Of a DNA stretch of 64,000 bases, positions 18,654 through 19,874 are shown one piece after another. Made by a program: the position numbers and the translations under genes. Numbering within the stretch: position 1 is the stretch's first letter; each line of letters starts with the position of its first letter. The stretch is taken from NCBI RefSeq assembly GCF_044647545.1, contig NZ_CP172818.1; one strand, written 5' to 3'. The DNA comes from Escherichia coli (GTDB taxonomy: Bacteria > Pseudomonadota > Gammaproteobacteria > Enterobacterales > Enterobacteriaceae). The notes below the pieces were generated by a model. The model did no database searches, was not told the origin of the DNA, and saw nothing but the letters and a program-made list of their open reading frames with translations.

Positions 18654-19874
18654 ATGTCAATTGACTTTACCCCAGGTATGATAAATACATATCACGGCGA
18701 TATTTATAACCGCACAACAGATACCGACAATGCTAAAACACCAGACACACCGATGTGGCCTTGTGATAATCAGGAAGAACAGCAACCCATTAATTTTTCA
18801 TTGTCTGAAGAAGGATATAACGCTGAACAATTTGATTTAGCGCAACAACAACTCCAACAAATTAATGCGTGCCACACGAACACCACATATACAAATGCAG
18901 ACTACTCAAAAGTTGTGGCTCAACTTGTAAAACTTATTAATAACATTGAAACGATAAGTTCGACACCACTTACGCAACAGACACAATCAATACTTAATCA
19001 GATTAATAACATTAGATACGAAAAGAATAAAAACTCTGAATCTAAAATCATTGTTGTCTTTAATCCTAAGCCCAATAAGCCAATCATAACTAAAATTCTC
19101 GTAGAAGAGGGAATACCAGTAAGATTCAGTGTCCAAACCGTTTCTTCCGAAAATAAAAATTTTTCTGGGCAACGAACTGATTTACCAACTGATATAAAAG
19201 ATATTCAACGCTTGTACCAAAAAATGACAAGGTTGTATATTGAGCACAGTGAAAATGAAAACAGGATGAAAGTCTTTGCTGGAACCAACTTTATTGATTT
19301 CAATATGACAGGACAGGACCTGTCCGGGTTCGTTCTAACCTTGTCAAGGTTTTATTTCGAAGATTTACTTAATGTAAACTTCACTGACGCAAATTTTGAT
19401 ACTATTTTTTCACATAAGGAAAACCCCATCACAAATTTACATAAAGATGAACAATATGTTGACAAACAAATCAATGGTTTATTTTCAACATTATTAACCA
19501 TTAATGACAACTCTTTAAGAGCAAAAGCGGAAATTGTTTCGACAATAATAGAATTATTAGAAACCAGGGTAAACAATCTTTCATACAACGACATAATAAA
19601 ATATCAGCAAGAATTCCAAAAAGAATGTTACAAGCAAGTTAAAGATTTTACAACACCCTCTCGATACAATAGAATTAAAAAATGGGCACAAATGTCTGAA
19701 TATCAATTCGAAATATTTCAACACGATACGTTTCATCTTAAAAAAATGTCATACGCACCTTATTTAAAGAGATCGCTACCTGATGAAAAAACTATAAATT
19801 ATGGGGTGGAAATAGAAACACCAACTGGCAAAAGAATTCGCTTATCAAATCATTACCAGAATATAATCCCATAA
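18654..19874 (+). CDS. yhiS: YhiS family protein, apparently intact
   Basis: Uninterrupted 406-aa ORF between arsC and slp, the position yhiS occupies; no IS sequence recognised inside it. Confidence 0.65.

Follow-up and report, generated by a model that had tools for sequence, protein, structure and literature searches.

The yhiS locus of Escherichia coli raises the question of whether the gene is a functional unit that was broken in the K-12 laboratory lineage, or an open reading frame on its way out of the genome. The window, i.e., the whole stretch of DNA analyzed here, comprises 64,000 nucleotides of the E. coli contig NZ_CP172818.1. A preliminary reading of this DNA, based on the letters alone, had described a continuous 406-residue frame at the yhiS position and had proposed that it represents the uninterrupted ancestral state of the K-12 pseudogene in a non-K-12 background. 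We examined the identity of the frame, its relationship to the K-12 allele, the origin of its unusual length, and the forces that may act upon it.

An uninterrupted yhiS gene between arsC and slp

The gene order at the locus is arsB (15732-17042), arsC, yhiS, slp and dctR (20839-21369). The placement of yhiS between arsC and slp-dctR is conserved and corresponds to that of the K-12 gene. The main features are the following:

17055..17480, + strand: arsC, left synteny anchor
18644..18649, + strand: Shine-Dalgarno-like AAGGAA, 4 nt 5' of the yhiS ATG, read from the sequence
18654..19874, + strand: yhiS open reading frame, uninterrupted ST648-type allele (ATG start, 406 amino acids, coordinates including the stop codon)
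20120..20686, + strand: slp, right synteny anchor and start of the acid fitness island

As described in the sequence-only reading, the frame at the yhiS position is continuous; it starts with ATG and lies between arsC and slp, and no IS sequence was found inside 18654-19874. The frame has a GC content of 33%, and the probability of 406 codons without a stop at its own base composition is about 3e-14, so that its length is far beyond chance. The remaining five frames over yhiS contain 17-48 stops each and are nowhere open for more than 83 codons. A promoter and terminator scan around the frame yielded nothing above shuffle expectation.

Full-length homologues of the encoded protein were confined to E. 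coli and Shigella. Almost all of them have 407 amino acids, with 64-99% identity at 100% coverage, and they include a UniRef entry named YhiS (E=1.5e-205). A profile search (HMMER, 1.84 billion cluster representatives) returned a single full-length cluster, namely the YhiS family itself (one 50%-identity cluster), the other matches being fragments of the same family and pentapeptide-repeat proteins that align only at positions ~204-277. Scans of the protein against Pfam, NCBIfam, PADLOC and PHROGs revealed no family above threshold. Judged by full-length homology and by locus position alike, the 406-residue frame is the orthologue of YhiS (b3504 / P37635), as had been proposed; a failure of the frame to match YhiS was not seen, and its product shows 79.6% amino acid identity with the reconstructed K-12 protein. 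Very probably, the frame is the normal, intact copy of yhiS in an E. coli of the ST648 type (phylogroup-F-like).

The IS5 insertion of K-12 and the state of yhiS in other genomes

The annotation of MG1655 (NC_000913.3) treats yhiS (b3504) as a pseudogene whose two pieces are joined around IS5T, which carries insH11 and spans positions 3652036-3653230 of the record. The literature agrees: IS5 copy 11 is inserted within K-12 yhiS (PMC11677980), and the gene has been listed as a pseudogene disrupted by an insertion element (PMC8170033). The statement that K-12 yhiS is split by IS5 was accordingly correct, and an intact copy was not seen in the K-12 reference. The junctions in MG1655 read CAAATTTAG/GGAAGGTGCG...CGCACCTTCC/TTAGGTGAC, which corresponds to a 4-bp TTAG duplication; excision of IS5 (~1.2 kb) together with one TTAG copy restores an intact 407-residue frame. 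The target TTAG lies within codon 249, and in window coordinates the insertion point falls between 19396 and 19397. The window gene is contiguous here, aligns across the site to uninterrupted alleles and does not have the IS5-interrupted state.

Of 5426 complete E. coli genomes, 355 contain the yhiS::IS5 junction, represented by an 80-bp probe, and all 40 junction-bearing genomes among the matches listed are laboratory strains, i.e., K-12 derivatives and one engineered B strain. At least 80% of the yhiS frame was found in one place in 3992 of the 5426 genomes, a count that includes IS1-split copies merged by the search tool. From these two distributions it follows that the uninterrupted state is the species norm in E. 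coli and that the IS5 insertion belongs to the K-12 lineage. The insertion is thus a derived, lineage-specific event that hit TTAG in codon 249 and produced the 4-bp target duplication. In the engineered E. coli B strain, C3029 (NZ_CP014269.1), the only IS5 match is the K-12 yhiS::IS5 junction, which presumably arrived with K-12 DNA when the neighboring gor locus was transferred in the making of the strain.

The uninterrupted yhiS of the window is a known kind of finding, correct but ordinary. Its biological weight is small: both the annotation of the K-12 reference and published work already record the split gene, and yhiS is uninterrupted in most E. coli.

Allele class of the window gene

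The window gene is 99.7% identical to yhiS of FDAARGOS_497, strain "ST648", ECONIH1 and others. FDAARGOS_497 is the nearest complete genome, and relative to its yhiS the window gene has one substitution (19365 C>T) and one 3-bp deletion; over 12989-17500 the two genomes are 100% identical, and no difference separates them across 30-47 kb or 49-60 kb. The arsC, slp and dctR genes of the window are identical to those of M160133. The near-identity to ST648-type strains over tens of kb, together with chu sequences that are absent from K-12, bears out the proposed non-K-12 background, and with such a background the K-12 annotation should not be transferred blindly at the yhiS locus.

The proposal of an ancestral state fared less uniformly. 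It stands for the uninterrupted condition, which is older than the IS5 insertion and prevails in the species, but not for this particular allele. The window gene shares with the K-12 gene its locus and orientation and contains no IS, as a direct uninterrupted ancestor would; yet it shows only 88.9% DNA and 79.6% protein identity with the reconstructed K-12 gene (one gap), whereas uninterrupted K-12-type alleles with 99.9% identity exist in the natural strains 300709, M217, 4/2-1 and W5-6. Moreover, the TTAG target is absent from the window at the site homologous to the K-12 insertion, where ST648-type alleles have TTAT. Direct ancestry is therefore exceedingly improbable, and the window allele as progenitor of the K-12 allele is refuted by these identities and by the alleles found elsewhere.

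The arsC-yhiS spacer and error-like noise in the window

The spacer between arsC and yhiS is polymorphic in E. coli. Many lineages contain a divergently transcribed ArsR/SmtB-family regulator and a 333-residue permease, K-12, O157:H7 and YZMc3-1 contain instead a 0.63-kb REP-containing spacer, and M160133 has an additional IS3 upstream of yhiS. Further upstream, two AgrB-family antisense RNA genes are present at 14881-14965 and 15113-15196 (the agrA/agrB region by dinQ), as in K-12; these are ordinary, and an Rfam scan of 14-22 kb detected nothing beyond these two known copies. In the window, the spacer is composed of the following segments:

17500..17663, + strand: REP-containing spacer of K-12 type, absent from near-identical relatives; best match only ~85% in 5426 genomes
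17664..17804, + strand: A-rich stretch with a poly-A run, of an origin not derivable from the relatives' sequence
17805..18338, + strand: 3' half of the relatives' permease and downstream spacer, with base-specific dropout
18339..18653, + strand: AT-rich upstream region of yhiS, conserved, with one SNP relative to the ST648 type

Relative to its counterparts, the segment 17805-18338 is missing 196 single bases (111 G, 59 T, 16 C and 10 A) and shows only 19 mismatches. As a result, 73% of all Gs and 25% of the Ts are lost, but few As or Cs, leaving 6.4% G and a GC skew that reaches -0.70. This G-depleted segment is probably a sequencing or assembly artefact; if the dropout were real, it would represent a base-specific deletion process not known before. 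Gradual pseudogene decay was considered and rejected as an explanation of the pattern, since the identity of arsC, slp and dctR to those of M160133 leaves no time for a divergence of 25%. Derivation of the A-rich stretch (17664-17804) from the regulator and permease by deletion-only alignment, on either strand, fitted no better than shuffles, whereas positive controls at 17805-18340 reached about twice the shuffle scores. A literature search on a pairing of G/T versus A/C detection channels in a sequencing platform gave nothing usable.

Similar noise is found elsewhere. In the chu haem-uptake island (21370-29010), 1395 bp comprising chuS and the 3' end of chuA are lost directly after the dctR stop codon, and the rest of the island differs from FDAARGOS_497 by ~100 small indels of all base types and ~60 mismatches, such that every chu frame is fragmented. 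The alignment segment 21368-60215 contains 62 mismatches, 64 deletions and 44 insertions, as opposed to zero in the adjoining 17 kb. Nearly all of these lie in chu coding DNA (21.4-29 kb); the remainder belong to the spacer between yhjD and yhjE near 48.15 kb, where 12 deleted and 10 inserted bases cluster at 48149-48216, exactly where K-12 is non-homologous. Indeed, all of the window-specific noise outside yhiS coincides with segments absent from K-12. An assembly that was guided by a K-12 reference or poorly patched is the most economical reading of this noise, and we consider it reasonably probable. Caution is thus advised for features called at 17.5-18.34 kb, at 21.4-29 kb and near 48.15 kb, as well as for the one-codon length difference of yhiS.

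Origin of the one-codon deletion

The canonical length of YhiS is 407 amino acids, and the window protein has 406 owing to a singleton in-frame 3-bp deletion:

19395..19397, + strand: site of the window's singleton in-frame 3-bp deletion, which is also the site homologous to the K-12 IS5 insertion (between 19396 and 19397)

Where its relatives read GCAAATTTATTTGAT, the window reads GCAAATTTTGAT, thereby removing the Leu of pentad 8 in a repeat tract described below. All of the 20 other aligned alleles encode 407-410 residues and retain this Leu, and the exact 406-residue protein is recorded only once (WP_400165082.1).

We lean slightly towards the view that the uninterrupted gene is real and that its length is an assembly artefact, the true product having 407 residues. 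K-12 would then have served as guide when the assembly was built or patched, and errors would sit wherever K-12 has a breakpoint or lacks a homologous stretch. The deletion and the protein are unique, the missing codon coincides exactly with the breakpoint of IS5 in K-12, and every other difference from FDAARGOS_497 lies in one of three segments without a K-12 counterpart (the regulator and permease, the chu island and the yhjD-yhjE spacer). The error-like differences beyond dctR, the G/T-specific dropout, and the presence of a "noisy" K-12-type REP spacer that is absent from the near-twin all point in the same direction, as does the size of the chromosome (4,499,902 bp), which is small for a lineage whose listed relatives measure 4.96-5.31 Mb. 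Against an artefact, the deletion is in frame and lies within a TTTATTT run where real slippage is plausible, and yhiS otherwise differs from that of FDAARGOS_497 by only one substitution, although the gene is 11% diverged from K-12. The same coincidence of position might suggest the scar of an imprecise excision of IS5, once inserted at this site in the window lineage. IS5 prefers YTAR-type targets. The ST648-type alleles have TTAT rather than the TTAG duplicated in K-12, no IS5-bearing relative of this allele occurs among the matches listed (which are K-12 derivatives or carry K-12 DNA), and the genome is otherwise identical to FDAARGOS_497; a scar of this kind is very improbable. The conclusion that yhiS is uninterrupted is independent of the question of an artefact, since ST648-type genomes contain an intact 407-residue gene in any case.

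The pentapeptide-repeat tract

As far as the profile searches reveal, a pentapeptide tract is the only recognizable feature of YhiS:

19284..19415, + strand: degenerate pentapeptide-repeat tract, residues 211-254, the best-conserved part of YhiS

About nine consecutive pentads can be read at residues 211-255, with F, M or L at the centre and N or D at the preceding position. The pentapeptide family is defined by at least eight tandem pentads of the A(D/N)LXX type, and profile matches lend weak support to the inclusion of YhiS. The distant database matches are all PF00805 proteins, those with multiple repeats having E values of 3e-8 to 5e-4, and the YhiS family profile matches PDB entry 2f3l (E=0.007) and, more weakly, TL15 (3n90) and QnrB1 (2xtx). 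The Pfam PF00805 model itself scored 9.9 bits on YhiS (E=0.74), below the gathering threshold of 20.2. An AlphaFold2 model built from a 21-sequence alignment was unusable (mean pLDDT 37.4, pTM 0.23), and the fold proposed here is thus a prediction from sequence. In the conserved core of YhiS, ~9 pentapeptide repeats are predicted to build a short right-handed beta-helix, with helical regions on either side. Such a core would most likely serve as a binding surface for a macromolecular partner rather than as an enzyme, and we infer that YhiS may be a non-essential, normally H-NS-silenced and horizontally acquired cytoplasmic accessory protein.

Selection, silencing and repeated loss of yhiS

The gene yhiS occurs only in E. 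coli and Shigella. Its DNA is rich in AT and lies at the left border of the acid fitness island, and the gene evolves fast and is often lost. When the window was compared with six genomes that carry other allele classes, yhiS gave a dN of 0.09-0.12, a dS of 0.18-0.31 and an omega of 0.38-0.53; over the same pairs of genomes, omega for arsC, slp and dctR is 0-0.13. Nearly all of the genomes compared encode an identical Slp, the one exception being K-12, with a single nonsynonymous change. In 50-codon windows of yhiS, dS rises to 0.6-0.85 and omega ranges from 0.1 to ~1.2, with values of ~1 in residues 126-175 and 351-400. The pentapeptide tract, in comparison with K-12, has an omega of 0.16-0.24, and the C-terminal motif is strongly conserved. 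The protein alignment has a mosaic appearance, composed of blocks with two or three haplotypes each.

Inactivation of yhiS takes many forms: IS5 in K-12, IS1 in MB10, EC102, EC31 and others, a truncation to 371 residues in O157:H7, a frameshift in isolate 68, and a mostly deleted remnant with a large internal deletion in the B2 strain Seattle 1946. This short form was observed in ~17% of evenly sampled matches. As for its regulation, the K-12 arsC/yhiS and insH11/slp spacers have been described as H-NS-bound "promoter islands" (PMC3661553), yhiS has been cited as an H-NS/StpA site (bioRxiv 10.64898/2026.02.10.705075), and over-expression of YdeO was reported without induction of yhiS (PMC4222967).

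These properties may suggest that the frame is a non-functional relic that is open by history and not kept by selection. Its overall omega of 0.4-0.5, with values near 1 in some 50-codon windows, would agree with such a relic, as would the independent inactivations in K-12, O157, isolate 68, B2 and the IS1-bearing strains, the H-NS/StpA binding without induction by YdeO, and the lack of a chlorhexidine phenotype in a K-12 yhiS deletion mutant. We nevertheless regard it as unlikely, in view of the 406 open codons at 33% GC, the preservation of a 407-residue frame between alleles whose local dS amounts to 0.6-0.85, the strong conservation of the pentapeptide tract and the C-terminal motif, and an overall omega well below 1. 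The relaxed constraint and the repeated inactivation would also fit a gene that is being lost. A more doubtful proposal still sees in YhiS a pentapeptide-repeat protein of ancient polymorphism under active maintenance, e.g., a secreted effector-like factor or a DNA or protein mimic; balancing or diversifying selection would preserve its deeply diverged and recombining alleles, and lineage-specific trade-offs would account for its loss in K-12, O157 and B2. Among the chromosomal loci of E. coli, yhiS ranks with the more divergent, and a population-genetic study of it could be rewarding.

Comparison with known proteins and alleles

YhiS exhibits profile-level matches to the PF00805 proteins (e.g., the Rfr-domain protein 2f3l, TL15 and QnrB1), and about nine pentads can be read in it. 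Unlike in these proteins, the tract accounts for only ~45-70 of the 406 residues and remains below the Pfam threshold, and the rest of the protein is without a homologue.

The window gene has in common with K-12 yhiS (b3504, UniProt P37635) the arsC-slp locus, the orientation, homology over the full length, the pentapeptide tract and the C-terminal motif. It differs from the K-12 gene in that it is free of IS5, belongs to a divergent allele class, and is one codon shorter exactly where K-12 carries IS5.

The closest counterparts are the ST648-type YhiS proteins of FDAARGOS_497 (WP_022646234.1) and M160133 (WP_063815085.1), both of 407 amino acids and annotated as "hypothetical protein". These relatives carry the ArsR/SmtB-family regulator and the permease between arsC and yhiS, whereas the window contains a garbled remnant there; yhiS itself is 99.7% identical at the nucleotide level, and the flanking arsC, slp and dctR genes are identical.
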